Source: Alphaproteobacteria bacterium (GTDB lineage: Bacteria; Pseudomonadota; Alphaproteobacteria; UBA828). Taken from it: a stretch of DNA of 64,000 nucleotides. The stretch's first letter is position 1, and every line of letters begins with the position of its first letter. Where the stretch lies: NCBI GenBank assembly GCA_963422645.2, contig CAXXVO010000007.1, positions 288,001 through 352,000 of the forward strand. Reading direction: 5' to 3'. A model generated the notes under the pieces. The model saw only the letters and a list, made by a program, of their open reading frames with translations. It did no database searches and was not told the DNA's origin. The translations under genes were made by a program, and so were the position numbers. Shown here piece by piece: positions 9,616-56,555 of the stretch.

Positions 9616-10713
9616 ATGCGTGCGATGACACGGATATTCGGGCTGATCGTCGCGGGCATCCTCGGGCTTGGCGTCGCGGGAAGCGCCGCGCTGGCGGATG
9701 CTGGAGGGGCGATCGCGCCCAAGGAGGCCCCGCCTGCGCTCGCCGAACTGGGCAAGCGCTTGTTCTATGACGAGCGGCTTTCCGGCGACACCTCGCTCGC
9801 CTGCGCGAGCTGCCACCAGCCGGAATACGCGTTTAGCGACGGCGAGGCGCTTTCCGCCGCGTACACGGGTGCGAGTCACTTCCGCAACACGCCGACCCTT
9901 GCCAATGCCGGCCACCGCGCCGCGTGGATGCACGACGGCCGTCTCGGCACGAATCTCAACGACGTGACGCGCGAGATGATCACCGAGACGTATTTGATGA
10001 ACATGGACATGCGGCTGATGCAGGAGCGCCTGAAGCAGGACCCGGTCTATGTCGAGATGTTCGGCGCCGCGGGTCTGGGCGAGCCCTCCAACGGCGGGGC
10101 CCGCAAGGCGCTGGCGGCGTTCGTCGGCACCATCGTCTCGCGCGGCGCCGCCATCGACTCAGGCACCATGTCGTCAGCGGCACAGCGGGGCGCACTGCTC
10201 TTCGAGGGCCGCGCCGGCTGCGTGCAGTGCCATGCGGGCGCGCGCTTCACCGACGACAGCCCGCACAACACCGGCGTTCCCGACAACCCCGAGATCTGGG
10301 CGGATCCGGAACGGCACTCGGCCTTCGTCACCTATGCCAAGTTCATGGGTGTCGAGAACTACATGAACCTGCGCGAGGACCTCGGCGCCTACGTGCGCAC
10401 GCACCGGGACGAGGACAAGCGCAGCTTCCTCACGCCGACGCTGCGCGAGCTCACTTGGACCGCGCCCTATATGCATAACGGGGTGTTCGGGACCCTGGAG
10501 GAGGTCGTGGACTTCTACGACGCAGGGGGCGGTGACGATCCTCTGAAAGACGCGCGACTGAAGCCGCTCGGGCTGGTGCCGAGCGAGAAGGCCGACCTCA
10601 TCGCCTTCCTCCAGGCGCTGAGCGGCGAGACCTTCGACACCGACGAATACGTCTGGCGCGCGGACGACTACGACTACGCGCTGATCGAGAACTGGCGCAA
10701 CGAGCCGAACTAG
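9616..10713 (+). CDS. Di-haem cytochrome c peroxidase/MauG-family protein (IdrP-like)
   Basis: Signal peptide, LGKRLFYDERLS, CASCH, CVQCH, TPTLRE...TAPYMHNG. Confidence 0.9.
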   Translation: MRAMTRIFGLIVAGILGLGVAGSAALADAGGAIAPKEAPPALAELGKRLFYDERLSGDTSLACASCHQPEYAFSDGEALSAAYTGASHFRNTPTLANAGHRAAWMHDGRLGTNLNDVTREMITETYLMNMDMRLMQERLKQDPVYVEMFGAAGLGEPSNGGARKALAAFVGTIVSRGAAIDSGTMSSAAQRGALLFEGRAGCVQCHAGARFTDDSPHNTGVPDNPEIWADPERHSAFVTYAKFMGVENYMNLREDLGAYVRTHRDEDKRSFLTPTLRELTWTAPYMHNGVFGTLEEVVDFYDAGGGDDPLKDARLKPLGLVPSEKADLIAFLQALSGETFDTDEYVWRADDYDYALIENWRNEPN

Positions 10714-10724
10714 GGGAAGCCGCC

Positions 10725-11905
10725 GTGACCCTGCCCCGCATCCTTCTCGCCGTCGCCGTCGCGGCCCTGCTCACCGTGCCCGCGATGGCGGTCCTGTTCG
10801 TCGCGCCCGCGATGGCGGACGACCTCGCCGCGCCCGCGATGGCGGGCGACCTGCGGCCTGCAAGCCTCGCCCCGCTCGGCCCGCCGCCGGTCCCGGCGGA
10901 CAATCCCATGTCGGACGAGAAGGTTGAGCTCGGCAAGATGCTCTTCTTCGATCCGATCCTCTCCGGCAACGCCGGCATGCCCTGCTCGGCCTGCCACCTG
11001 CCCGAGGCCGGCTGGTCCGTGCCCTTTGCGGTCAGCATCGGCTACCCCGGCAGCATTCACTGGCGCAACAGCCAGACCATCATCAACTCGGCCTATTACG
11101 GGAAGCTCTTCTGGGCGGGCGCATCCAAGTCACTGGAGGCGCAGGCGCGCTCGGCGGCGCGCGGTGCCGTCGCCGGCAATGGCGAGGACGACATGATGGA
11201 GGCGCGGCTCGCCTTCGTGCCCGAGTACCGCGAGCGCTTCCGCGACGTGTTCGGCGACGACTGGCCCAACGTCCGCCATGCCTACATGGCGATCGCGGCC
11301 TTCGAGCGGACCCTGGTGCAGACCGACACGCCCTTCGACCGCTACATGCGGGGCGAGGACGGCGCGCTGAGCGCCGCCCAGAAGCGCGGCCTCGCGCTCT
11401 TCGACGGCAAGGCGAACTGCACCACCTGCCACAACGGCCCGCTGCTGACGGACGAGCGCTTTTACTGGGTGTGCCGCCCTACGACGGCTGGGAAGACGAC
11501 GAGCTTGCGCAGATCACCTTCCGCTTCGAGCTCTATGCCAAGGGTTCGACCGAGGCCTTCTACCGCGCCACCAAGGACGACCCCGGCCTCTACTTCCGCA
11601 CCAAGGCGAAGGAGCATCTCGGCAAGTTCCGCACGCCGAGCCTGCGCTACACCGCGTACACGGCGCCCTACATGCACAACGGCATGCTGGAGACGCTGGA
11701 GGACGTGGTCGCGTTCTACAACCTGGGCGGCGGCGAGAACGAGTTCGCCGAGACCAAGACCTCCCTGATCCAGCCGCTCGGCCTCACGCAAGCCGAGATG
11801 GACGACCTGGTCGCCTTCCTCGAGAGCCTTTCGGGAGAGGAAATCCTGATGGAGGAGCCGGAGCTGCCCGAGATGGAGCCGCTCCCGCTCGCCGCGCGAG
11901 ACTGA
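10725..11905 (+). pseudogene. Second di-haem cytochrome c peroxidase-family protein (IdrP-like), frameshifted near 11462-11466 (real lesion or sequencing error)
   Basis: DNPMSDEKVELGKMLFFDP, CSACH and CTTCH in the first frame; FRTPSLR...TAPYMHNG in the shifted frame ending 11905. Confidence 0.85.
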
Positions 11906-11917
11906 GAGGCCTGCGCC

Positions 11918-12505
11918 ATGACGATCGATAGCCGCATCGCTGCAGGCGTGTCCGGCCCCAACGGCGCCGCCGCCGAGGAGACCGAGGGCACGCCCTGCCT
12001 GATGACCCGACGCAGCTTCCTGCTGCTCGGCGGGCTGACCACTGCCGTGGTCATGGTCGGCGTTCCCGGCCTCGCGCAGGCGGAGACGCCGGCGGTGGTG
12101 GCCACCTATCCCAAGAAGCTCATCGCCAAGTTCTCGTCGCTGATCGTCGACGAGCCGGTGGACTTCACCTACCCGGACGAGGGCGAGTATTCGGAATCGA
12201 TGCTGGTCAGGCTCGGGACCGAGGCGGGCGGCGGGATCGGGCCGGAGCGGGATGTCGTGGCCTTCAACTACACCTGCACCCACCAGGGCGGGCCGCTCTT
12301 CGGCACCTACAAGCCGCTAGACAAGGCGCTCGGCCCCTGCCCGCTACACCTCACGACCTTCGACCTGGTGCGCCACGGCATATTCATCTCGGGCCAGGCC
12401 TATCAGTCGCTGCCGCAGGTGCTGCTGGAGCTTGAAGGCGACGACATCTACGCGACCGGAATGTTCGGCCTGATTTACGGCCGCTTCGACAATCTTCAGG
12501 GCTGA
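11918..12505 (+). CDS. Tat-exported Rieske small subunit, AioB/IdrB-like
   Basis: TRRSFL twin-arginine motif; Rieske ligands CTHQGG and CPLHLTTFD; QSLPQVLLE. Confidence 0.92.
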   Translation: MTIDSRIAAGVSGPNGAAAEETEGTPCLMTRRSFLLLGGLTTAVVMVGVPGLAQAETPAVVATYPKKLIAKFSSLIVDEPVDFTYPDEGEYSESMLVRLGTEAGGGIGPERDVVAFNYTCTHQGGPLFGTYKPLDKALGPCPLHLTTFDLVRHGIFISGQAYQSLPQVLLELEGDDIYATGMFGLIYGRFDNLQG

Positions 12506-12517
12506 GGAAGCAGAGGC

Positions 12518-15193
12518 ATGGCCACCCCCTACTACGTGCCCGAAGAGAGCGTGCCGCTGCCGCCGCCGGACGCGGAGGTCATCTCGACCGCGTGCGACTA
12601 TTGCATCGTGGCCTGCGGCTACAAGGTCTATCGCTGGCCGGTGCGGGGCGGCAAGACGGGCGGACCCACCGCCGACCAGAACGCGCTGGATGCCGACTTC
12701 CCGGTCGAGCCGCTCGGCGCATGGGTCGCGCCCAACCAGCACAACATCGTGCTGCACGAGGGCGAGCCCCACCACATCGTCATCATCCCCGACAAGGACA
12801 CCGAGTTCGTCAACTACACGGGCAACTCCTCGATCCGCGGCGGCGCCATCGCGCAGAAGGTCTACAACCCGGAGACGCCCACGCGTGATCGCCTGAAGTC
12901 GCCGCTGATCAGGATGTTCGGCGTGCTCATGCCGGTGCCGTGGGACTTCGCGCTCGATATCGCTGCCCAGGTGGGCAACCACGTGCTCGATGCGCACGGC
13001 ACCAACGCCTACTGCGTCAAGACCTTCTCCTACGGCTACATGGAGAACACCTACGCCATCACCAAGTACGCGCTCCGCAACGTGCGGACCGCGAACTTCA
13101 CCTTCCACGACACCCCGTCGGACGTGACCTCGACACCCGGTTTCCGCGACGCAGGCTTCGACAATTTCGCGCCCTCCTACGAGGACTGGCGCGATGCCGA
13201 CGTACTGCTGATGTGCGGCACCGACCCTTACGAGACCAAGACCATCCTGTTCACCGACTGGATCATGCCCGGCATCCAGAACGGCCAGCGCGCGATCTTC
13301 CTCTTGCCGAGACGCACCGGCGGCGTCGCATACGCCGAAGACAACGGCGGGATGATGATCGACATCCTGCCCGGTACCGACCTGCCCGTCGTGCTCGCGA
13401 TCGCCCGCGTGATCGTCGAGAACAGCTGGGAAGACTCGGCGTGGATCCGCGACTGGGTCAACAACAAGTGGGAGAGCTCGTCGGGCTTCGGCCAGGGCAC
13501 CCGCAACACGCCGTGGCAGTGGCGTACCACCTGGGGCAAGTTCCAGACCGACGGCTTCGAGGACTGGAAGGCGTGGCTGCTGGCCCAGGACTACGCGGTG
13601 CCCGAGAAAGCCGCCGAGATCGCCCAGATCGATGTCCAGAAGATCTACACCGCCGCCGAGTGGATGGCGAAGCCGCGCGCCGACGGCTCCAGGCCCAAGA
13701 CCTCGATCATGATCGAGAAAGGCTTCTACTGGTCCAACAACACCGGCAACACCAACGCCATCTCGTCGCTGGGCATCATCTGCGGCTGCGGCGGTCGGCC
13801 GGGGCAGGTGATCGGCCGAGCCGGCGGGCACCAGCGGGGCGGGCTCAGGGGCGGCGGCTATCCCCGCAACCTGAGCCCCGAGAAGCTGCCCGGCCGGCGC
13901 CGGCGCGCGCTCGACACCGACCGCTACCTGATGAGCGGCCACACGCGGCTCGCCCACGTCATCGGCACGACCTGGGTGCAGGCGATGTGCGGCACGCAGT
14001 CGTTGCAGGCGAAGTTCGACGAGCTCACGACGCAGAACCCGCACCAGGTGCAGAGCTTCGATCCCGCCGACATCGTCGACACCCTCAAGCGGCGGGCCGA
14101 TTCCGGCGGCATGGTGGTGTGGAACCAGGACATCTACCTGGTCGACCCCATCGGCGCCCGCTACGCCGACATCGTCTTCCCCGCCGCCGGCTGGGGCGAG
14201 GAGACCTTCACCCGCGCCAATGGCGAACGGCGCATCCGCCTCTACCCGAAGTTCTACGACGCGCCCGGCGACGCGAAGCCCGATTGGTGGATCATCGCCC
14301 AGCTCGCCAAGAGGATGGGTTTCGAGGGCTTCGACTGGAGGGACTCCAACGAGGTGTTGGAGGAAGGCGCGCGCTTCTCGCGCGGCTCGCGCAAGGACTT
14401 CTTCATGGTCAAGGTCGCGGCCCAGCGCGAGGGCAAGACGCTCCACGAAAAGCTCCGCGAATTCGGAACCAACGGCATCCAGGGCCCGGTCCTGATGCGC
14501 CCGGACGGCACACTCGAGGAGACCAAGCGCCTCCACGACGTGTACCGAATTCTGCCGGAAAAAGGCCCTGCCGGCGGCACGGTCTTCAACAAGAAGCTCA
14601 CGCACTTCAATACCCAGACCGGCAAGTGCAATCTGCAGAAGGCGCCGTGGAGCCTCTTCTCCAGCTACTGGGAGTGGCTGAAGCCGCGCCAGGACGAGAT
14701 CTGGATCACCTCGGGGCGGATCAACGAGCGCTGGCAGTCGGGCTACGACGACCGCAGGCGCCCCTACATCGTGCAGCGCTGGCCCGAGAACTGGATCGAG
14801 CTTCATCCCGACGACGCCGGCGCGCGCGGCATCGAGTCCGGCGATTATGTGATGTGCTACTCCGACCGCGTGCCGGTGCAGACCAACACCATCATCGGCG
14901 TCGAGAGAGACGACTTCGACTTCTCCTCGCTGCTGCGCGAAGGCCATATCGAGCTGACGCGCGCCGCCATCACCGCCGTCGCCATCGTGACGCCGGCGAT
15001 CAAGCAGGGCGTCGGCTACATGGATTTTTTGCACACCAGCCAGCCCGCGAACGCGCTGGTGGGCCGCGTGGTCGATTGGATCAGCGGCAACTACAACTAC
15101 AAGATGGGCGTGGGACGGGTCCGGCGGCTCGGCGAGAGCCCCTACAAGCGCCAGTACCGCTCCATGTCGTTCGCACGCCGCGACATCGCCTGA
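12518..15193 (+). CDS. Molybdopterin catalytic subunit, AioA/IdrA-like
   Basis: VPLPPPDAEV, [3Fe-4S] motif CDYCIVACGY...SSIRGG, EKGFYW, GGHQRG, NGERRIRLY, C-terminal molybdopterin dinucleotide-binding domain. Confidence 0.93.
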   Translation: MATPYYVPEESVPLPPPDAEVISTACDYCIVACGYKVYRWPVRGGKTGGPTADQNALDADFPVEPLGAWVAPNQHNIVLHEGEPHHIVIIPDKDTEFVNYTGNSSIRGGAIAQKVYNPETPTRDRLKSPLIRMFGVLMPVPWDFALDIAAQVGNHVLDAHGTNAYCVKTFSYGYMENTYAITKYALRNVRTANFTFHDTPSDVTSTPGFRDAGFDNFAPSYEDWRDADVLLMCGTDPYETKTILFTDWIMPGIQNGQRAIFLLPRRTGGVAYAEDNGGMMIDILPGTDLPVVLAIARVIVENSWEDSAWIRDWVNNKWESSSGFGQGTRNTPWQWRTTWGKFQTDGFEDWKAWLLAQDYAVPEKAAEIAQIDVQKIYTAAEWMAKPRADGSRPKTSIMIEKGFYWSNNTGNTNAISSLGIICGCGGRPGQVIGRAGGHQRGGLRGGGYPRNLSPEKLPGRRRRALDTDRYLMSGHTRLAHVIGTTWVQAMCGTQSLQAKFDELTTQNPHQVQSFDPADIVDTLKRRADSGGMVVWNQDIYLVDPIGARYADIVFPAAGWGEETFTRANGERRIRLYPKFYDAPGDAKPDWWIIAQLAKRMGFEGFDWRDSNEVLEEGARFSRGSRKDFFMVKVAAQREGKTLHEKLREFGTNGIQGPVLMRPDGTLEETKRLHDVYRILPEKGPAGGTVFNKKLTHFNTQTGKCNLQKAPWSLFSSYWEWLKPRQDEIWITSGRINERWQSGYDDRRRPYIVQRWPENWIELHPDDAGARGIESGDYVMCYSDRVPVQTNTIIGVERDDFDFSSLLREGHIELTRAAITAVAIVTPAIKQGVGYMDFLHTSQPANALVGRVVDWISGNYNYKMGVGRVRRLGESPYKRQYRSMSFARRDIA

Positions 15194-17431
15194 GCGCGCG
15201 CGGCCTCCGACATCGATCCCGCACAGACCATCGCGCCCTATCTCGCCGCGCCGGATGACGTCATCCGCTGCGCCGCCGCGCGCGCGCTCGGTGCGCTGGG
15301 CGGAGATGCTGCAGCTGCGCCGCTGGCGGGCCTGCTCATGGACCCCGACCCGGACCTCCGCGCGGATGCGATGGCGGCGCTCGCGCGCTGCGCCCGGCCC
15401 GAGGACGCCCCCGCCATCCGTCGCTCGCTGGCAGGCGACCCCGTGGGAGAGGTCAAGGTGGCCGCCATTCAGGCTCTTGCGCGGCTGAAGGACGGGGACT
15501 CGGTTCCGCTCCTGCGCGCTCTGGCGCTAAGCCGGTGCGAAACCGAGGTCGCGTGGGAGGAGCCGGGCAGCGGATGGGACGACTGGCTCGACGTCCAGGT
15601 GGCCGCGATCGGGGCGCTCGGCGCCATCGGCGCGGAGGAGGCGGTCGACGATCTGGTCCACGCCCGGGACGACGAGATGGGCCAGGACCTCGACCACGTC
15701 GTGTTCGCTGCGCTTGCCCAGCTTCCCGATCGCGGCGTTCCGGCGCTGCGCGGCTTTTTCCAACATGGCGATGCGCGCGTCCGCGAGCGCGCTTTCGATA
15801 CCTTGGCAGGCGCCGGGCGCGAGGCATTGACGCCGCTGCGCGAGACTCTGGTTCGAGACCGGAGCCCGGGCGTGCGGCGCCTCGCCGTCGACTGCTTCGA
15901 TGAAGACGCCGAGGCACTCGCCGCCCTCGCCTTGAAGGACCCGGACGCCGGCGTTCGCTGTGCCGCCCTCGCCCGCGCAATGCCGGCCCGCCCCGATGTC
16001 GGGCGCTCCGCGCTCCGCGACCCGGACGAGAGCGTGCGCGCAGTCGCGCTGGAAGCGCGCGAAAGCAAGCCTGCGGGCGATGACGAGCCCGATCTCGTCG
16101 CCAACGTGGAGGCGTGGCTGCGTAGCGCCGGCGTCTCGCTCGCGACGGTCTGCGCGGCCGTGCTGCCGACGCTTGCCGGCGCGCGATCCCTGCATGCGCT
16201 CGGCGAGACGGCCCACGACAGCGAGCGGCCGCCGGAGGTGAGAATCGCCGCCCTCCATTCCCTGGGACGGATCGGGACCGAGGAGAGCGTCGACCTGCTG
16301 CGCCACGCGGCCGTAGACGGCTCGCGTCAAGTGCGGCTCGCGGCGCTCACGTCGCTGGTCGAAATCACGCGGAGCGCACCGGCCGATATCGGGGATGGTG
16401 CGCGTGCGGTGCTGATGGAAGCGGTGCGCGGCGCCCTCGCGCCGGCGCTGCCTGCCGAGGAGGCGGGCACCGGGAGCGCCACCCCGAGCGCGCCTGTGGA
16501 TGCGGCGCCGGGCGAATCGGAGCAAGGCGCTCCGACGCCTGACGACGAGATGCCTCCCGCCCCGACGCCATCGGCCTCCGACGACCGGGCTTCGGACACC
16601 GCTTCGACCGAGCCGGCGTATCCCCGCTCGACGCTCGAAGCGATCGGCGGGCGCCCGGTCGCGGCGGCCCGGTCGGAGGCCGCGCCCTCCTCTTCGGACG
16701 GGGGCGCAGGGCCACCCGAGCGCAGGCCGAGACGGCGGCCCGGGCGGGTCGCGGTCGACGGTCCCGATGACTTCGGCCAGGACCTGCGACTGACTGCGCT
16801 CCGACTGGCGGCCGCGTGCAAGGGCGGCCAGTTCGATGATGCGTTGGCGGAGACGGCGGCGTCGACGACGCCGGCGCTGCGCGCTGCCGCCTTCGAGGCA
16901 ATTGCCCGGCGCGCCGCCGCGATGTCCCTCGCGCCCAGCCTGACCGATATTGTCGTGGTCGCCTTGAAGGACGGCGATCCGACCCTTCGCGCGGCCGCAG
17001 CGCGGGCGCTCGCCGCGCGGAGCGACGCGGCCCCTCACCTCGCCCCGCTGCTCGATGACCCTGACGACAGCGTGCGTGCGGTTGCGTTGAAGGCAGTTGC
17101 GGCGGCCGATCCCGAAGAGGCTGCCCGCGGCTTCGGCGATCCCTCGGCAATCGTCCGTGTTGCGGCACTGGACGCCGCCGCCGGATGCGGGCAGGACCAC
17201 CTCGTCGAGCAGGCCATAAGGGCGCTCGCCGAGGGCGGCTTCACGGACACGCTGCATCAGGCCTGCCGCCGTCACCCCTTCGCACGGCAGGCCCTGCTCG
17301 CGATGCTGCGCAAGGCCGACTCCCTTCCTCCGCAGCGCCTCCTCATGATCCTCCAGGCCCTGACCCACGCCGCCGCCGTCAATGCAGGTGTGGCGGCCGA
17401 CCGGGACACGGCAGCGCGGGAGGTCGTCTGA
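15194..17431 (+). CDS. HEAT/PBS-lyase repeat protein (first ATG at 15338; HEAT-like frame open from 15194)
   Basis: Many DPDxxVRxxAxxAL repeats and a central Pro/Ala/Ser linker. Confidence 0.8.
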   Translation, partial: ARAASDIDPAQTIAPYLAAPDDVIRCAAARALGALGGDAAAAPLAGLLMDPDPDLRADAMAALARCARPEDAPAIRRSLAGDPVGEVKVAAIQALARLKDGDSVPLLRALALSRCETEVAWEEPGSGWDDWLDVQVAAIGALGAIGAEEAVDDLVHARDDEMGQDLDHVVFAALAQLPDRGVPALRGFFQHGDARVRERAFDTLAGAGREALTPLRETLVRDRSPGVRRLAVDCFDEDAEALAALALKDPDAGVRCAALARAMPARPDVGRSALRDPDESVRAVALEARESKPAGDDEPDLVANVEAWLRSAGVSLATVCAAVLPTLAGARSLHALGETAHDSERPPEVRIAALHSLGRIGTEESVDLLRHAAVDGSRQVRLAALTSLVEITRSAPADIGDGARAVLMEAVRGALAPALPAEEAGTGSATPSAPVDAAPGESEQGAPTPDDEMPPAPTPSASDDRASDTASTEPAYPRSTLEAIGGRPVAAARSEAAPSSSDGGAGPPERRPRRRPGRVAVDGPDDFGQDLRLTALRLAAACKGGQFDDALAETAASTTPALRAAAFEAIARRAAAMSLAPSLTDIVVVALKDGDPTLRAAAARALAARSDAAPHLAPLLDDPDDSVRAVALKAVAAADPEEAARGFGDPSAIVRVAALDAAAGCGQDHLVEQAIRALAEGGFTDTLHQACRRHPFARQALLAMLRKADSLPPQRLLMILQALTHAAAVNAGVAADRDTAAREVV

Positions 17432-17512: not shown

Positions 17513-17634
17513 TCAGGGATCCAGGCGGACGACGCCGTCTGCCACCAGCACGCGGTCATCGAGGCGGACGGTCGGCCGGTAGATCACCATGTCGAGATGA
17601 ACGGGGCAGCGCACGGTGCCGCCGTAATAGATGT
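17513..17634 (-). pseudogene. Separated 3' end of the aminopeptidase-like gene
   Basis: Reads (NIY)YGGTVRCPVHLDMVIYRPTVRLDDRVLVADGVVRLDP*, continuing the 19515-20390 frame once the IS is removed. Confidence 0.88.
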
Positions 17635-19514
17635 GTAACTGCCCAGGTCGTCTGATTTGTCATTTTGGGCCAGTGGATTGAGGCGTTTCTCGTTCGGAGT
17701 TGGTGGAAAGGGCTTGACGGGAATTTCGGGAAATGACTCAACAACGACATGAGCAATCCCGAGTCGCCGCGCGGCCCTTCGACGGGAGCAGCGCCCGAAA
17801 CGCCCGCGCAGAAGATCGCCCGCCTGGAGGAGGAGAACGCCCGGCTTCGGGAGGAAAATGCCTGGCTTCGGCAGCAGAACGCGCGGCTGGAAGAGCAAGT
17901 CGCGCGTCTCGTCGAGCGCATCGAGGAGTTGGAGCGCCGTCTCGGCCTCAACAGCGTCAAGCCGCCTTCGAGCGATGGGCTGAGGAAGCCGAATTCGAAG
18001 CGGCGAACCCGAAGCCTGCGCGGCAAATCGGGCCGCAAGCCCGGTGGCCAGCCCGGCCACAAGGGCAAGACGCTGCGCCGCGCCGATCACCCGGATCGGG
18101 TGAAGGATCACGTCCCGGCTTCCTGCAAGGGATGCGGTTCGCCGCTTTCGGACGCGGCCAGGGCGGGAACGCCCGTCGCCCGCCAGGTGTTCGATCTGCC
18201 CGAGCCGAGCCCCCTGGAGGTGACCGAGCACCGGGCGCATGCCAAGTGCTGCGGGCATTGCGGGACGGTGACCCGGGCGGCGTTCCCCGACGGGGTGTCG
18301 GCGCCGGTGCAGTACGGCCCGCGCATTGCCGGGGTGGCGGTCTACCTTCAGCACGCTCACTTCCTGCCGGAGGATCGGCTGTCGCAGGTGATGGCCGAGC
18401 TCTTCGGCGCGCCGGTGACGGCTGCGACGTTGGCGACGATGAGCGAGAGGGCGGCCGAGCGGCTTGCGGGACGCGGCCTTGCACATACAGGACCTGGCGG
18501 CGGGCACGGCGCGGGTGAAACACATGGACGAGACCGGCTTGCGGATCGGCGGTCAGACGCAGTGGCTTCATGTGATCTGCACGCCGCTGCTGGCGGCGTA
18601 CCGGGTCAGCGGCAAGCGCGGCGCCCTGCTCTCGGGTGTCTCCGGCATCGTCGTGCACGATCACTGGAAGCCGTACTTCGCGATGGAAGGGGTGGAGCAC
18701 GGCCTGTGCAACGCCCATCACCTGCGGGAGTTGCAGGCGCTGGTGGACATCGAAGGGGAGGCTTGGGCCCGGCGGATGCAGCAGCTCCTGCGCCGAGCCA
18801 ATCGCGCCGCCCGCATCGCGCTGGACAAGGATATCGCCGTTCCGGCGAGGCTTGTGGCGCTGATCGAGCGCCGATACGACGAGATCATCGCCGATGCGCT
18901 GGCCTTTCACGAGAGCCAACCACCGTTCTCGCCTGGCAAGAGGAAGAAGCGCCGGAAGCGAAGGATCGGTCACAATCCGGCCTTGAGGCTGCGCGACCAC
19001 AAATGCGCGGTGCTCCGGTTCCTGATCGACCTCGAGGTCGGGTTCACGAACAACGAGGCCGAGCGCGACCTTCGGATGATGAAGCTGCGCCAGAAGATCT
19101 CCGGGGGCTTCCGGTCCGCGCAGGGGGCCGAGAACTTCGCCATCCTGCGCAGCGTCATCACCACCGCCAGAAAGCAGGGCTGGAATATCATCGAAGCCCT
19201 GACCAGCCCATCGGATCGGCTCATCGCCACCGTCAAGTGCGCGTAAGCTCACCTGGCACGGGTTCTCCAACAGCGGAGCCATTCTCATAAACGATCATGG
19301 TCGACGCCGTGCTGGACCACCCCATAGAATGAAAATCGGTGCCCGTCGCGCGGGCGGACTTCGGGCCACATCGGGGTAGCTTACCGGTCGCAGTCCGCAA
19401 GAGGGGCATCGTGAGCTGTGAAACCCGGCGACCCCAGAGGAGCACACGGGCGTCGCGTGGGTAGCGTTGTGCCGAATCCCAGAGAATTTTCACAGCAAGA
19501 ACCTGGGCAGTTAC
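17635..19514 (+). mobile_element. IS66-family single-ORF (ISBst12-type) element 'A', 1880 bp, with 8-bp target duplication
   Basis: TIRs GTAACTGCCCAGGT / ACCTGGGCAGTTAC; ATAGATGT at 17627-17634 and 19515-19522. Confidence 0.93.
17749..19246 (+). pseudogene. IS66-family transposase, frameshift (one extra base) near 18463
   Basis: Coiled coil, KPPSSDG, GGQPGHKG, CxxC pairs, HMDETG, VHDHW, CNAHHLREL, FTNNEAERDLRMMK. Confidence 0.9.
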
Positions 19515-31416: not shown

Positions 31417-33776
31417 ATGCCCAGTACCCTCCCAATGTGCCCTCCAGAGGCGGTCTCGATCGGCAACAGCTGCTTCGCCGTCCTGATCTCGGACGACACC
31501 TTCACCTACTTTTCCAACCTCATTCCCTTTGACAGCCACGCCGCCGATGACCGCACGGCCATGCTCTTGCGGATCGGCCGCCTCGCGGCGATCAGCGCGG
31601 TCTCGCCGCAGGAACTGGCTGACGCTTTCGCTGTCTCGCGCGCGACGGTGCAGCGCGCACGACGGCGCTACCTGGCCGAGGGCGAAGCGGGGTTCATGAA
31701 GCCCCGGCGCGGTCGCGGGCCGTCGGTGTTCACTCCGGAGTTGGCGGAGAAGGCGACGGCGTTGCTGGCATCGGGCCTGAGCGGCTCTGCGGCGGCCCGG
31801 GTTCTCGGCGTGTCAGCGCCATCGGTCAACAAGTGGCGCCGTCAGGGACTGATCGGCAACACGGAGGCGGATGGGGAGCCCGGACGCTCAGCGCTGGCTG
31901 CGCCGCCTGACGCGGGTGCGGCTCCTGAAGGCCGTGTCGATGAAGAGAGTACCGGTGCCCCGGGGCCGGAGACGGCGCCGGGGCTGGAAGCGCAGCCGCA
32001 AACGGATCGCAGCGCGCGCGATCGGCGGGACCGGCAGGCGCCGATGGGGCGTGCGACTTGCGATGTTCCGGCTCGGGTTCTGGCCAGTTGTGGACAGGCG
32101 GGGCCGGTCGAACCGCAGTTCGCCGCCGCCGCCCGCGGTGTCCGCTTCGGCGGCGTGCTCGCCGCCCTGCCGGCCCTGCTGAAGGAAGGTCTTCTCTCCG
32201 AGACCGGTCTCCTGCCATTGCTGCCGAAGGGCTATTACGGCTTGCCTACGATCCTGCTCTTCCTGGCCTTCATGACCTTGGCGCGGGTGCGCAACCCCGA
32301 GAGCCTGCGCTACCAGGCGCCGGGCGAATGGGGCGCCATTCTCGGCCTCGATCGCTGCCCCGAGGTCAAGACGCTGCGCCGCAAGATCGCTCTCATCGCC
32401 GACGACGAGGCCGGCGTGCGGGCGTGGCAGCTCGCCCTTGCCAGGCGCTGGCAGGCGCCGACGAGCCGGAGCTCTGGGCGACGCTGGCCATCGACGGGCA
32501 CGTCAAGGTCTACTCCGGCCGCAAGGGGCGCTTGCCCAAGCACTTCGTCTCGCGCGAGAAGCTGTGCCTGCCGGCGAGCGCCAGCTACTGGATCAACGCT
32601 CTGGGCGGCAAGCCGCTGCTCTGTCTGCACAAGCCGCTGGACCCGAAGATGGTCGCGGCCATCGAAGCCGACGTGGTGCCGGCGCTGCAGGAGCTTGGGA
32701 TCGTTGGCGCCGGGGCGCCGGACCTGACCGCCGAGCATCCCGGCCAGCCGGCGCTCACCCTGGTCTTCGACCGCGAGGGCTGGAGCCCGGATCTGTTCCG
32801 CCGGCTGGCGAGGCGCGGCGTCGCCTGCCTGACCTGGCACAAGAACTTCAGGGGCGAGGACTGGCCGGCCGAGGACTTCGGCGCGATGACCGTTCCCATT
32901 CACGGACCGGCGGCGGACGGCAGCGCCACCATGCGGCTGGCTGAGAAGCCGGTGACGTTGCCGAACGGCTTCAGGGTGCGCCAGATCCGCCGCCTGCTCG
33001 ACAACGGCCGTCAGGTGCCGCTGATCACCACCGATCCGCACAAGCCGATGGCTGAGGTTGCGGGCGCCATGTTCTCGCGCTGGTCGCAGGAGAACTTCTT
33101 CAAGTACATGCGTGACGAGTTCAATCTCGACGCCCTGCCGACCCACGAGCTCGAGCCTCTCGATCCCGCCGCCATGGTCGTCAACCCGCTGCGGCGGGCC
33201 TATGACAAGGCAATCCATCGCCTCGACCGCCAGCTTGGCCGCCTGCGCAACCGCATCGCCGACACGGCCCGGAAGAAGCAGCCGACGGCGGAACTCAGGA
33301 GGGAAGTCAGGGACCTCCAGGATGTCCGCGACATCGTCAGGGCCAGCCGCAGGGAGACGCCCAAGCACTGCCGGGCCGGCGACCTCGACGAAGCCGAGCA
33401 GCTCGATGCCTTGCCCGCGCGCGAGCGCCTCCTCCTCGACGTCATCCGGATGATCGCCTACCGCGCCGAAACCCGCATGATGCTTCCCGTCATGCAGGCG
33501 CAGGGCCACAAGCCCCATCCCCGGAAACTGCTTCAAGCGCTGCTCACCGCCGATGCCGACATCCTGCCGGATCCTGGCAATGGCCTCCTGCGGGTCCACA
33601 TTCTTGGCCTCGCAAACGACGCCTGCGACCGTTGGATCGATGCGGTTCTGAGCGACCTGAACGCCACCGAAACGGTCTTCCCCGGCACCCGTCTGCGCAT
33701 AGTCTACGACATCGACGGGGCCTCGGAATCCGCGCGGCTCGTGTCACCTAAAATCAGCAGAGGTCAGGAAGTCTGA
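31417..33776 (+). pseudogene. HTH + DDE transposase (about 786 aa if joined), frameshift near 32452-32462
   Basis: HTH motifs; AIDGH, VFDREG, RWSQENFFK as candidate D-D-E; stop TGA is the last 3 nt of the TIR. Confidence 0.8.
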
Positions 33777-33779
33777 ACA

Positions 33780-36294
33780 TCAGACTTCCTGACCTCGTGA
33801 TGCTGGCTGTTCTGGGCAGCGTGCCGGGAACTCCTTGAATTCTGATACATTTCGGTTGTTTCAGGCGGTTTTTCGCTGGGTGTCGCGCCCGAGGTCTGAT
33901 ATTATAATTTGATACCAATTGCACGGTCTCAACCATGCCCAGTACCCTCCCAATGTGCCCTCCAGAGGCGGTCTCGATCGGCAACAGCTGCTTCGCCGTC
34001 CTGATCTCGGACGACACCTTCACCTACTTTTCCAACCTCATTCCCTTTGACAGCCACGCCGCCGATGACCGCACGGCCATGCTCTTGCGGATCGGCCGCC
34101 TCGCGGCGATCAGCGCGGTCTCGCCGCAGGAACTGGCTGACGCTTTCGCTGTCTCGCGCGCGACGGTGCAGCGCGCACGACGGCGCTACCTGGCCGAGGG
34201 CGAAGCGGGGTTCATGAAGCCCCGGCGCGGTCGCGGGCCGTCGGTGTTCACTCCGGAGTTGGCGGAGAAGGCGACGGCGTTGCTGGCATCGGGCCTGAGC
34301 GGCTCTGCGGCGGCCCGGGTTCTCGGCGTGTCAGCGCCATCGGTCAACAAGTGGCGCCGTCAGGGACTGATCGGCAACACGGAGGCGGATGGGGAGCCCG
34401 GACGCTCAGCGCTGGCTGCGCCGCCTGACGCGGGTGCGGCTCCTGAAGGCCGTGTCGATGAAGAGAGTACCGGTGCCCCGGGGCCGGAGACGGCGCCGGG
34501 GCTGGAAGCGCAGCCGCAAACGGATCGCAGCGCGCGCGATCGGCGGGACCGGCAGGCGCCGATGGGGCGTGCGACTTGCGATGTTCCGGCTCGGGTTCTG
34601 GCCAGTTGTGGACAGGCGGGGCCGGTCGAACCGCAGTTCGCCGCCGCCGCCCGCGGTGTCCGCTTCGGCGGCGTGCTCGCCGCCCTGCCGGCCCTGCTGA
34701 AGGAAGGTCTTCTCTCCGAGACCGGTCTCCTGCCATTGCTGCCGAAGGGCTATTACGGCTTGCCTACGATCCTGCTCTTCCTGGCCTTCATGACCTTGGC
34801 GCGGGTGCGCAACCCCGAGAGCCTGCGCTACCAGGCGCCGGGCGAATGGGGCGCCATTCTCGGCCTCGATCGCTGCCCCGAGGTCAAGACGCTGCGCCGC
34901 AAGATCGCTCTCATCGCCGACGACGAGGCCGGCGTGCGGGCGTGGCAGCTCGCCCTTGCCAGGCGCTGGCAGGCGCCGACGAGCCGGAGCTCTGGGCGAC
35001 GCTGGCCATCGACGGGCACGTCAAGGTCTACTCCGGCCGCAAGGGGCGCTTGCCCAAGCACTTCGTCTCGCGCGAGAAGCTGTGCCTGCCGGCGAGCGCC
35101 AGCTACTGGATCAACGCTCTGGGCGGCAAGCCGCTGCTCTGTCTGCACAAGCCGCTGGACCCGAAGATGGTCGCGGCCATCGAAGCCGACGTGGTGCCGG
35201 CGCTGCAGGAGCTTGGGATCGTTGGCGCCGGGGCGCCGGACCTGACCGCCGAGCATCCCGGCCAGCCGGCGCTCACCCTGGTCTTCGACCGCGAGGGCTG
35301 GAGCCCGGATCTGTTCCGCCGGCTGGCGAGGCGCGGCGTCGCCTGCCTGACCTGGCACAAGAACTTCAGGGGCGAGGACTGGCCGGCCGAGGACTTCGGC
35401 GCGATGACCGTTCCCATTCACGGACCGGCGGCGGACGGCAGCGCCACCATGCGGCTGGCTGAGAAGCCGGTGACGTTGCCGAACGGCTTCAGGGTGCGCC
35501 AGATCCGCCGCCTGCTCGACAACGGCCGTCAGGTGCCGCTGATCACCACCGATCCGCACAAGCCGATGGCTGAGGTTGCGGGCGCCATGTTCTCGCGCTG
35601 GTCGCAGGAGAACTTCTTCAAGTACATGCGTGACGAGTTCAATCTCGACGCCCTGCCGACCCACGAGCTCGAGCCTCTCGATCCCGCCGCCATGGTCGTC
35701 AACCCGCTGCGGCGGGCCTATGACAAGGCAATCCATCGCCTCGACCGCCAGCTTGGCCGCCTGCGCAACCGCATCGCCGACACGGCCCGGAAGAAGCAGC
35801 CGACGGCGGAACTCAGGAGGGAAGTCAGGGACCTCCAGGATGTCCGCGACATCGTCAGGGCCAGCCGCAGGGAGACGCCCAAGCACTGCCGGGCCGGCGA
35901 CCTCGACGAAGCCGAGCAGCTCGATGCCTTGCCCGCGCGCGAGCGCCTCCTCCTCGACGTCATCCGGATGATCGCCTACCGCGCCGAAACCCGCATGATG
36001 CTTCCCGTCATGCAGGCGCAGGGCCACAAGCCCCATCCCCGGAAACTGCTTCAAGCGCTGCTCACCGCCGATGCCGACATCCTGCCGGATCCTGGCAATG
36101 GCCTCCTGCGGGTCCACATTCTTGGCCTCGCAAACGACGCCTGCGACCGTTGGATCGATGCGGTTCTGAGCGACCTGAACGCCACCGAAACGGTCTTCCC
36201 CGGCACCCGTCTGCGCATAGTCTACGACATCGACGGGGCCTCGGAATCCGCGCGGCTCGTGTCACCTAAAATCAGCAGAGGTCAGGAAGTCTGA
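33780..36294 (+). mobile_element. Unassigned 2515-bp IS, copy 2 (tandem with copy 1, ACA spacer)
   Basis: Junction ...GAAGTCTGA-ACA-TCAGACTTC...; ORFs identical to copy 1. Confidence 0.92.
33935..36294 (+). pseudogene. HTH + DDE transposase, same frameshift (about 34970-34980)
   Basis: Identical 436-aa and 572-aa ORF pair. Confidence 0.8.
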
Positions 36295-54195: not shown

Positions 54196-56555
54196 TCAGA
54201 CTTCCTGACCTCTGCTGATTTTAGGTGACACGAGCCGCGCGGATTCCGAGGCCCCGTCGATGTCATAGACTATGCGCAGACGGGTGCCGGGGAAGACCGT
54301 TTCGGTGGCGTTCAGGTCGCTCAGAACCGCATCGATCCAACGGTCGCAGGCGTCGTTTGCGAGGCCAAGAATGTGGACCCGCAGGAGGCCATTGCCAGGA
54401 TCCGGCAGGATGTCGGCATCGGCGGTGAGCAGCGCTTGAAGCAGTTTCCGGGGATGGGGCTTGTGGCCCTGCGCCTGCATGACGGGAAGCATCATGCGGG
54501 TTTCGGCGCGGTAGGCGATCATCCGGATGACGTCGAGGAGGAGGCGCTCGCGCGCGGGCAAGGCATCGAGCTGCTCGGCTTCGTCGAGGTCGCCGGCCCG
54601 GCAGTGCTTGGGCGTCTCCCTGCGGCTGGCCCTGACGATGTCGCGGACATCCTGGAGGTCCCTGACTTCCCTCCTGAGTTCCGCCGTCGGCTGCTTCTTC
54701 CGGGCCGTGTCGGCGATGCGGTTGCGCAGGCGGCCAAGCTGGCGGTCGAGGCGATGGATTGCCTTGTCATAGGCCCGCCGCAGCGGGTTGACGACCATGG
54801 CGGCGGGATCGAGAGGCTCGAGCTCGTGGGTCGGCAGGGCGTCGAGATTGAACTCGTCACGCATGTACTTGAAGAAGTTCTCCTGCGACCAGCGCGAGAA
54901 CATGGCGCCCGCAACCTCAGCCATCGGCTTGTGCGGATCGGTGGTGATCAGCGGCACCTGACGGCCGTTGTCGAGCAGGCGGCGGATCTGGCGCACCCTG
55001 AAGCCGTTCGGCAACGTCACCGGCTTCTCAGCCAGCCGCATGGTGGCGCTGCCGTCCGCCGCCGGTCCGTGAATGGGAACGGTCATCGCGCCGAAGTCCT
55101 CGGCCGGCCAGTCCTCGCCCCTGAAGTTCTTGTGCCAGGTCAGGCAGGCGACGCCGCGCCTCGCCAGCCGGCGGAACAGATCCGGGCTCCAGCCCTCGCG
55201 GTCGAAGACCAGGGTGAGCGCCGGCTGGCCGGGATGCTCGGCGGTCAGGTCCGGCGCCCCGGCGCCAACGATCCCAAGCTCCTGCAGCGCCGGCACCACG
55301 TCGGCTTCGATGGCCGCGACCATCTTCGGGTCCAGCGGCTTGTGCAGACAGAGCAGCGGCTTGCCGCCCAGAGCGTTGATCCAGTAGCTGGCGCTCGCCG
55401 GCAGGCACAGCTTCTCGCGCGAGACGAAGTGCTTGGGCAAGCGCCCCTTGCGGCCGGAGTAGACCTTGACGTGCCCGTCGATGGCCAGCGTCGCCCAGAG
55501 CTCCGGCTCGTCGGCGCCTGCCAGCGCCTGGCAAGGGCGAGCTGCCACGCCCGCACGCCGGCCTCGTCGTCGGCGATGAGAGCGATCTTGCGGCGCAGCG
55601 TCTTGACCTCGGGGCAGCGATCGAGGCCGAGAATGGCGCCCCATTCGCCCGGCGCCTGGTAGCGCAGGCTCTCGGGGTTGCGCACCCGCGCCAAGGTCAT
55701 GAAGGCCAGGAAGAGCAGGATCGTAGGCAAGCCGTAATAGCCCTTCGGCAGCAATGGCAGGAGACCGGTCTCGGAGAGAAGACCTTCCTTCAGCAGGGCC
55801 GGCAGGGCGGCGAGCACGCCGCCGAAGCGGACACCGCGGGCGGCGGCGGCGAACTGCGGTTCGACCGGCCCCGCCTGTCCACAACTGGCCAGAACCCGAG
55901 CCGGAACATCGCAAGTCGCACGCCCCATCGGCGCCTGCCGGTCCCGCCGATCGCGCGCGCTGCGATCCGTTTGCGGCTGCGCTTCCAGCCCCGGCGCCGT
56001 CTCCGGCCCCGGGGCACCGGTACTCTCTTCATCGACACGGCCTTCAGGAGCCGCACCCGCGTCAGGCGGCGCAGCCAGCGCTGAGCGTCCGGGCTCCCCA
56101 TCCGCCTCCGTGTTGCCGATCAGTCCCTGACGGCGCCACTTGTTGACCGATGGCGCTGACACGCCGAGAACCCGGGCCGCCGCAGAGCCGCTCAGGCCCG
56201 ATGCCAGCAACGCCGTCGCCTTCTCCGCCAACTCCGGAGTGAACACCGACGGCCCGCGACCGCGCCGGGGCTTCATGAACCCCGCTTCGCCCTCGGCCAG
56301 GTAGCGCCGTCGTGCGCGCTGCACCGTCGCGCGCGAGACAGCGAAAGCGTCAGCCAGTTCCTGCGGCGAGACCGCGCTGATCGCCGCGAGGCGGCCGATC
56401 CGCAAGAGCATGGCCGTGCGGTCATCGGCGGCGTGGCTGTCAAAGGGAATGAGGTTGGAAAAGTAGGTGAAGGTGTCGTCCGAGATCAGGACGGCGAAGC
56501 AGCTGTTGCCGATCGAGACCGCCTCTGGAGGGCACATTGGGAGGGTACTGGGCAT
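54196..56555 (-). pseudogene. HTH + DDE transposase, same frameshift (about 55510-55521)
   Basis: Identical ORF pair on the minus strand. Confidence 0.8.

Follow-up and report, generated by a model that had tools for sequence, protein, structure and literature searches.

Iodate reductase (Idr) clusters, in which two di-haem peroxidase-like genes accompany the genes of a Rieske subunit and a molybdenum subunit, have been described both from isolated iodate respirers and from aerobic marine Alphaproteobacteria. Here we examine a five-gene locus in a stretch of 64,000 nucleotides (the window; positions 288,001 to 352,000 of contig CAXXVO010000007.1, assembly GCA_963422645.2) from an alphaproteobacterium of the UBA828 lineage. 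The locus is very probably a copy of the known iodate reductase cluster in family and mechanism, transcribed in the order idrP2-idrP1-idrB-idrA and followed by a gene for a HEAT-repeat protein. An earlier note, made from the sequence alone, had proposed a new sister clade and read the gene order as unusual; the cluster is in fact already known, since its distribution and function are in print and the marine alphaproteobacterial IdrA clade has been published.

According to Kine 2024 (PMC11445184), three marine aerobic Alphaproteobacteria (Roseovarius azorensis, Notoacmeibacter marinus as well as Aliiroseovarius sediminilitoris) reduce iodate, doing so only under static, oxygen-poor conditions and showing no anaerobic growth on iodate. 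The same paper reports that iodate induces the four idr genes 59-102-fold in static culture, with R. azorensis responding from 0.1 uM, that IdrA is the top protein in the iodate-reducing gel band, and that 2 mM iodate is almost fully turned to iodide by R. azorensis. A 2026 NSR paper (PMC13455634) adds that the cluster of an alphaproteobacterial metagenome-assembled genome (MAG) raised iodate reduction in Escherichia coli, and presents Azonexus hydrophilus NCP973 as an isolated iodate respirer. Altogether, a conversion of iodate to iodide that depends on idrA and on molybdenum and is induced by iodate has been demonstrated for relatives, as described in PMC8692401, PMC11445184, PMC10149662 and PMC13455634.

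The arsenite oxidase AioBA (Pseudorhizobium banfieldiae NT-26, Thermus thermophilus HB8, and Alcaligenes faecalis with structures 1G8K/4AAY) is the other described system that the locus resembles. It has the same arrangement of a Rieske small subunit bearing a signal for twin-arginine translocation (Tat) and placed before a large subunit with a [3Fe-4S] cluster and a molybdenum bis-pyranopterin guanine dinucleotide (Mo-bisPGD) cofactor, and its reaction runs in the oxidative direction. In NT-26, aioBA has aioX, aioR and genes for a sensor kinase and a cytochrome c as neighbours; none of these accompanies the window cluster.

Gene content and gene order

Pfam and NCBIfam matches across the five genes (E values from 1e-32 to 1e-125, far beyond chance) bear out the domain calls made earlier, namely two di-haem peroxidases, a Tat-exported Rieske protein, a molybdenum subunit and a HEAT protein (Table 1). 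The GC content and third-position GC of the cluster are like those of the rest of the window. The tight spacing of 0-12 bp that had been described holds for gene ends defined by homology, but not when ATG, GTG or TTG starts are used, which give intergenic gaps of 11, 149, 12 and 144 nt.

Table 1. Features of the idr locus and its surroundings, in window coordinates
Feature	Position	Strand	Match or remark
Di-haem peroxidase-like gene 1, 365 aa, probably idrP2	9616..10713	+	PF03150, 3.7e-33
Di-haem peroxidase-like gene 2, probably idrP1, frameshifted	10725..11905	+	PF03150, 8.3e-42
idrB, Rieske [2Fe-2S] small subunit, 195 aa	11918..12505	+	TIGR02694, 110 bits
idrA, Mo-bisPGD/[3Fe-4S] large subunit, 891 aa	12518..15193	+	PF18465, PF00384, PF01568; TIGR02693, 418 bits
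HEAT-repeat protein gene, open frame of 745 codons	15194..17431	+	PF13646, 1.6e-32
Candidate FNR/Dnr-type box ATGATTCAGGTCAA	9484..9497	+	one mismatch to TTGAY-N4-RTCAA; 132 nt before first start codon
IS66-type element, not part of the idr system	17635..19514		transposase frames split: 17749-19290, 18464-19246

The marine alphaproteobacterial idrABP1P2 clusters (Kine 2024, PMC11445184; Thalassovita taeanensis, PMC8692401) contain the same four core genes in the same order, and the T. taeanensis locus (L022) has a HEAT gene downstream, as in the window. The mass of 99.4 kDa given for R. azorensis IdrA in PMC11445184 matches the predicted 891 residues of the window protein. What distinguishes the window from these clusters is one frameshifted peroxidase gene. 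Related loci were drawn from the best 80 of at least 565 matches in species-representative genomes, at 73-90% identity. Among them, idrB adjoins idrA in 76 of the 76 loci with enough sequence, and both peroxidase genes together with idrB lie upstream of idrA in 67 of the 68 loci with at least 3 kb upstream, locus L055 being the exception. The peroxidase genes are therefore co-conserved, which was the outcome of the synteny survey that the earlier note had called for. The arrangement defined as a synteny criterion by Reyes-Umana 2021, two di-haem peroxidase-like genes linked to idrBA, is found here with one of the two genes frameshifted.

The isolated iodate respirers have the same peroxidase-peroxidase-Rieske-Mo order, in NCP973 by annotation and in Pseudomonas sp. 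SCT, Denitromonas iodatirespirans IR-12 and Azoarcus sp. DN11 by the papers alone. The annotation of NCP973 places a sensor kinase and then a sigma-54 regulator before the two peroxidase genes, after which come the small subunit, the large subunit, a cytochrome c and moaA; the window differs in having neither the upstream regulatory pair nor the downstream cytochrome c and moaA, and in having the HEAT gene instead. In the paper on Azoarcus DN11, the accessions of A, B, P1 and P2 follow one another in that sequence and the regulators are placed 'upstream'; such consecutive accessions are compatible with the same operon read from the opposite strand. Since the peroxidase-peroxidase-B-A order is kept in NCP973 and in nearly all related loci, and since the peroxidases are positional orthologues across clades, we regard it as the canonical physical order and 'idrABP1P2' as nomenclature rather than map order. 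Consequently, the order is not unusual, and idrA-idrB-idrP1-idrP2, which had been taken for the map order of the known systems, is not the order annotated in NCP973. By adjacency and by the DN11 accession order, the first peroxidase gene is probably idrP2 and the broken one idrP1.

Each of the two peroxidase-like proteins combines a Sec-type signal with two sites for haem c. In the first, the two CxxCH motifs stand at residues 63 and 202, and its identity to the corresponding first peroxidase is 76% for T. taeanensis, 54% for Vibrio and 44% for NCP973; by position, its gene is orthologous to the first peroxidase gene in other idr clusters. The locus of Vibrio sp. THAF190c likewise has the peroxidase-peroxidase-idrB-idrA order. 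As a separate observation, a gene for an azurin/plastocyanin-type copper protein lies just 3' of idrA in that Vibrio locus (L087, 10753-11196), and its product is a possible electron donor in gamma-type clusters.

Placement of the molybdenum subunit

More than 120 homologues of the window IdrA are listed at 75-90% identity, and the named ones come from marine Alphaproteobacteria and are all annotated as arsenite oxidase or 'arsenate reductase (azurin)'. A second homologue search, begun from a Mariprofundaceae protein, brought up no isolate names. The protein is 85% identical to that of T. taeanensis (= Litorimicrobium taeanense, the same species), which Reyes-Umana 2021 (PMC8692401) lists among the carriers of iodate-reduction genes. 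We built a tree of 47 proteins by a quick IQ-TREE search, with support from the Shimodaira-Hasegawa-like approximate likelihood ratio test (SH-aLRT) and with named references (the NCP973 idr locus; AioA of NT-26, Thermus HB8 and Hydrogenophaga) from the plasmid collection. The window protein fell inside a marine clade of 25 rows (SH-aLRT 100) that is sister (96) to NCP973 IdrA and Thiothrix, at an identity of only 50.7% between the window and NCP973 proteins. A separate clade (100) united the AioA proteins of NT-26, Thermus HB8 and other named AioA with the window genome's own AioA. This places the cluster in the IdrA clade, in its marine branch, which is mainly alphaproteobacterial. The catalytic subunit thus groups with NCP973 IdrA and is not nested in AioA, and the sister clade suggested earlier dissolves into the published marine IdrA clade.

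The AioA proteins are 27-31% identical to the window protein and have no peroxidase genes beside them. The same genome carries a canonical aioBA on another contig (contig 5, 313561-315771), whose subunits score 1134.9 bits on TIGR02693 and 188.7 bits on TIGR02694; the window subunits, at 418 and 110 bits, also exceed the respective cut-offs of 359 and 95.65, although the two large subunits are only 31% identical. The cut-offs of these two families do not separate Idr from Aio, and the TIGR02693 cut-off of 359 leads to the public mislabelling of IdrA as arsenite oxidase. The genome's own aioBA sits among IS3, IS21, IS4, IS1595 and IS66 transposase genes, and aioXSR was not found within about 9 kb of it.

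Domains and motifs of IdrB and IdrA

The IdrB sequence has a twin-arginine signal (TRRSFLL) and a Rieske [2Fe-2S] motif, C120-T-H ... C141-P-L-H (CXHX18CX2H), and is 57% identical to NCP973 IdrB versus 39-41% to AioB. IdrA has no signal peptide and combines the motif C26-X2-C29-X3-C33-X70-S104 with [3Fe-4S] and Mo-bisPGD domains. Both proteins match the spacings CX2CX3CX70S and CXHX18CX2H described in the Azoarcus DN11 paper. Furthermore, the isolated iodate respirers share with the window the Tat signal on IdrB, the Sec-type signals on both peroxidases and the same Fe-S spacings. IdrB precursors have 25-30 residues ahead of the twin arginines and a nearly invariant Cys four residues before RR, which is C27 in window IdrB (11918-12010); NCP973 IdrB also has a Cys just before the twin arginines.

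The motifs singled out earlier (CDYCIVAC, SSIRGG and CTHQGG/CPLH) are present and are indeed unlike those of AioA. The active-site stretches of the large subunit divide the proteins in the same way. All four named AioA proteins have HNRPAYNSE and GGHQEGY, to which we assign the residues of the arsenite site in the A. faecalis structure. Neither stretch occurs in the window protein, which instead has HDTPSDVTS and GGHQRGG in common with most marine-clade rows, with departures at some positions in a few rows. NCP973 has HDKCSATND and GGHQCGG. The window motifs are the signature of the published clade, not of a new one. The earlier view that the locus has the gene content of Idr and is no canonical arsenite oxidase is upheld.

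Proposed mechanism

The following scheme is drawn from Yamazaki 2020 (as cited), Reyes-Umana 2021 and Kine 2024. Following published Idr models, IdrAB would be assembled in the cytoplasm and co-exported by Tat. In the periplasm, it would take electrons from the cytochrome c pool and convert iodate to hypoiodous acid, a reaction that would also yield peroxide; the electrons would come from non-dedicated cytochrome c and quinol oxidoreductases. Removal of the peroxide would fall to IdrP1 and IdrP2, and hypoiodous acid would disproportionate or be otherwise converted to iodide. In aerobic marine Alphaproteobacteria, activity of the system would be confined to oxygen shortage, and its role would probably be that of an electron sink. 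By analogy with these relatives, iodate is the likely substrate of the enzyme encoded in the window.

The idrP1 frameshift and decay of the locus within the genus

A frameshift in the second peroxidase gene had gone unnoticed; the gene is present, but it is not one open frame. Both CxxCH motifs fall within the frame from 10725, which beyond them enters unrelated sequence and meets a stop at 11768; the 146 conserved C-terminal residues are encoded in another frame, up to 11905. Alignment with five close relatives shows that 4 nt are absent between 11464 and 11465. The out-of-frame part has no stop codons and is still 77% identical to the T. taeanensis orthologue, which indicates that the lesion is recent.

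Contigs from four public sequencing runs differ at this position. Run X1, which has the same species label, provides a 5527-letter contig over 10236-15762 with zero differences from the window and without the 4 letters, although X1 may be the source of the assembly itself and is not independent of the sample. In run X5 (same species label, older) and in run X9, CAAC is present behind 11464, and run X6 has four extra letters at 11464 as well. The lesion is present in the reads of at least one run and is not common to the other three. We rejected an assembly artefact as its origin insofar as Logan's independent X1 contig also lacks the 4 letters. Judged from the broken idrP1 frame, the sequenced culture may have an impaired system.

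Among 20 other species of the genus, idrA was found in two, and both copies are damaged. In one species (G020, contig 3), an insert of 4.6 kb, encoding a Mu/rve-type transposase and an AAA protein (AAA_22), interrupts idrA after residue 796. In the other (G005, contigs 1 and 4), the operon copy has lost about 2.5 kb inside idrA, and a separate idrA on another contig is intact, but there idrB and the peroxidase genes survive only as scraps. As far as these genomes tell, the idr island is rare and visibly decaying in this genus.

The downstream HEAT-repeat gene

The reading frame of the HEAT gene, which is also that of idrA, opens immediately past the idrA stop codon, and homology to its orthologues begins there. 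Its start is uncertain: the first start under translation table 11 is ATC at 15212 (739 aa) and the first ATG is at 15338 (697 aa), with no ATG, GTG or TTG before 15338 in this frame. A genus relative has identical sequence in this region. Stop-codon readthrough fusing IdrA to the HEAT protein was considered and rejected, given that the HEAT gene lies in other frames in relatives. The protein has no signal peptide and consists of N-terminal and C-terminal HEAT arrays with a low-complexity linker between them. Two conserved sequence features were seen in passing: a short motif P-x-S-T-L-x-A-I in the middle of the linker (about 16620-16650) and a W-x6-W-D-D-W-L-D-V-Q block in the N-terminal array.

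The HEAT gene had been regarded as an extra element of this particular locus. It is present as described, and it proves to be a regular neighbour: a HEAT gene of 700-850 codons lies directly 3' of idrA in 74 of the 75 genome loci with at least 1 kb downstream (72 detected by tblastn, and L055 and L074 by Pfam; the exception is L063) and in 20 of 20 alpha-type metagenome loci. It is directly downstream in none of 41 gamma-type metagenome loci; weaker members of the family (96-344 bits) occur elsewhere in 7 of 55 such loci. The NCP973 and Thiothrix loci have no HEAT gene, and the Vibrio THAF190c locus has only a divergent upstream open reading frame with a sub-threshold HEAT match. Within 41 related genomes, the family profile exceeds 650 bits solely in four, the four that carry IdrA. 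In our reading, the gene encodes a conserved cytoplasmic accessory protein specific to this branch. Searches of the HEAT protein against the PDB, NCBIfam and a protein atlas returned only generic HEAT, alphaRep, PBS-lyase-like and NblB-like matches, and a literature search for 'iodate' with 'HEAT repeat' returned unrelated papers only. The idr papers searched (PMC8692401, PMC11445184, PMC13455634) do not mention the gene, though supplementary cluster figures may show it.

A complex prediction for the HEAT protein with IdrB gave a score of 0.34 against 0.00 for the best of 3 controls, which lends weak support to an interaction; the mark used is reached by 58 of 80 solved complexes and by 2 of 110 mismatched pairs, but with a score of 0.60 or lower it is reached by only 7 of those 80 solved complexes and by both passing mismatches. 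At least 28% of contacts are common to the runs, and the partner has a predicted local distance difference test (pLDDT) value of at least 58. From this model, the place of the gene directly 3' of idrA, its co-occurrence with IdrA and the missing signal peptide, we raise the doubtful but specific suggestion that the marine alpha-type iodate reductase could have in the HEAT protein a fifth component of its own. It would act in the cytoplasm as an escort or assembly factor and hold the IdrB precursor or IdrAB until cofactors are in place before Tat export. Such a role would parallel that of TorD, DmsD and NapD for other molybdoenzymes, with an unrelated fold. The absence of the gene from beta-type and most gamma-type loci argues against an escort, as does the text of PMC13455634, where the construct behind the gain of iodate reduction in E. 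coli is given as idrABP1P2 alone. The HEAT protein could equally be a regulator or a scaffold, or be unrelated to the system.

Upstream region and flanks

A box of the FNR/Dnr type precedes the first peroxidase gene (Table 1) and is a candidate site of low-oxygen control. Boxes with at most one mismatch occur upstream of this gene in 32 of 66 related loci, compared with 9.1% of 2000 random 430-nt windows from the same loci, and the three closest named relatives (L006, L008 and L009) have two perfect boxes each. Such boxes fit the published low-oxygen induction and would offer a mechanism for it. A scan for promoters and terminators gave nothing above shuffled sequences.

An epimerase gene and recQ lie upstream on the other strand, preceded by housekeeping genes, and IS66-type genes follow downstream, so that the earlier statement that ars and aio regulators are missing holds. 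Beside the cluster we found no regulator, cytochrome c, moaA or cld-like gene. The IS66-type element is an insertion relative to the genus relative G005 (contig 4), which joins window position 17634 directly to 19515. The downstream 45 kb are a mosaic of insertion sequence (IS) elements (IS66, IS1595, IS21) and metabolic genes that begins just after the HEAT gene. Three transposase genes (PF21804) at 32058-33776, 34576-36294 and 54196-55914 are of equal length and have identical Pfam scores.

Alternative explanations

Public annotation would make the large subunit an 'arsenate reductase (azurin) large subunit', that is, part of a paralogue of arsenite oxidase, and this label is understandable when the protein passes the TIGR02693 cut-off, when homologues have arsenite oxidase-type names in NCBI, UniRef and JGI, and when AioA structures are its best solved-structure matches (E about 1e-79). 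The genome's own AioA, with its far higher score and low identity to the window protein, speaks against such an assignment, as do the two fully supported clades and the approximately unbiased (AU) test, which rejects the union of the marine clade with AioA (log-likelihood difference 148.8, p-AU 7.9e-29). The AioA active-site stretches are replaced, aioXSR is lacking near the cluster, and two peroxidase genes are linked to it, whereas Reyes-Umana 2021 (PMC8692401) reports none at aio loci. We consider an arsenite oxidase scarcely credible here. An Idr-type enzyme that serves another physiological oxyanion (bromate, chlorate, selenate or similar) and reduces iodate as a side activity is a somewhat less remote prospect, though still improbable. 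It could account for the different active-site stretches of the marine clade and the NCP973 type, and for the failure of the tested aerobic Alphaproteobacteria to grow anaerobically on iodate, as stated in PMC11445184. Against it stand the induction of the R. azorensis genes at submicromolar iodate, the place of IdrA at the top of the active gel band, the almost complete conversion of 2 mM iodate to iodide, and the gain of iodate reduction in E. coli carrying the MAG cluster. To our knowledge, there is no evidence for another substrate. The earlier proposal of iodate or another oxyanion is in this way narrowed to its first half.

Of greater weight, although we still judge it unlikely, is the explanation that the locus is Idr by descent but a decaying, non-working remnant in the sequenced culture. 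The frameshift removes a conserved part of one peroxidase, the HEAT gene has no ATG, GTG or TTG start where homology begins, lesions affect both other idrA-bearing species of the genus, and IS elements flank the locus. On the other side, the frames of idrP2, idrB, idrA and the HEAT gene are intact with third-position GC of 0.83-0.93, like neighbouring genes; the recent date of the idrP1 lesion and the presence of the 4 letters in run X5 also argue against this explanation. Several points tell against our assignment to the iodate reductase family and a working mechanism as well. The X1 contig agrees with the window on the frameshift, and the set of four intact core genes expected of a member is broken by it, a defect that bears on function in the strain and not on family membership. 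The active-site stretch of the marine clade departs from the NCP973 form as well as from that of AioA, and a neighbouring cytochrome c, moaA and dedicated regulator are missing, unlike in NCP973. Note also that the group compared in the AU test was named after the tree had been seen, that the tree came from a 'quick' search, and that its sole experimentally studied Idr is that of NCP973, at about half identity, the proteins of R. azorensis, Pseudomonas SCT, Denitromonas IR-12 and Azoarcus DN11 not being included. With these points counted, a copy of the known iodate reductase cluster is still by a wide measure the best account of the locus.

Implications

The cluster is one more marine carrier of a system with at least 565 matches among species-representative genomes, and it repeats the mislabelling of these enzymes as arsenite oxidases. 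What it adds to the known system is the HEAT gene and a strain-level lesion only. The lesion, which differs between runs of the same species label, constitutes a natural test of whether IdrP1 is necessary. The HEAT gene marks the alpha-type branch, and its product may be a missing maturation or regulatory factor of the marine iodate reductases.

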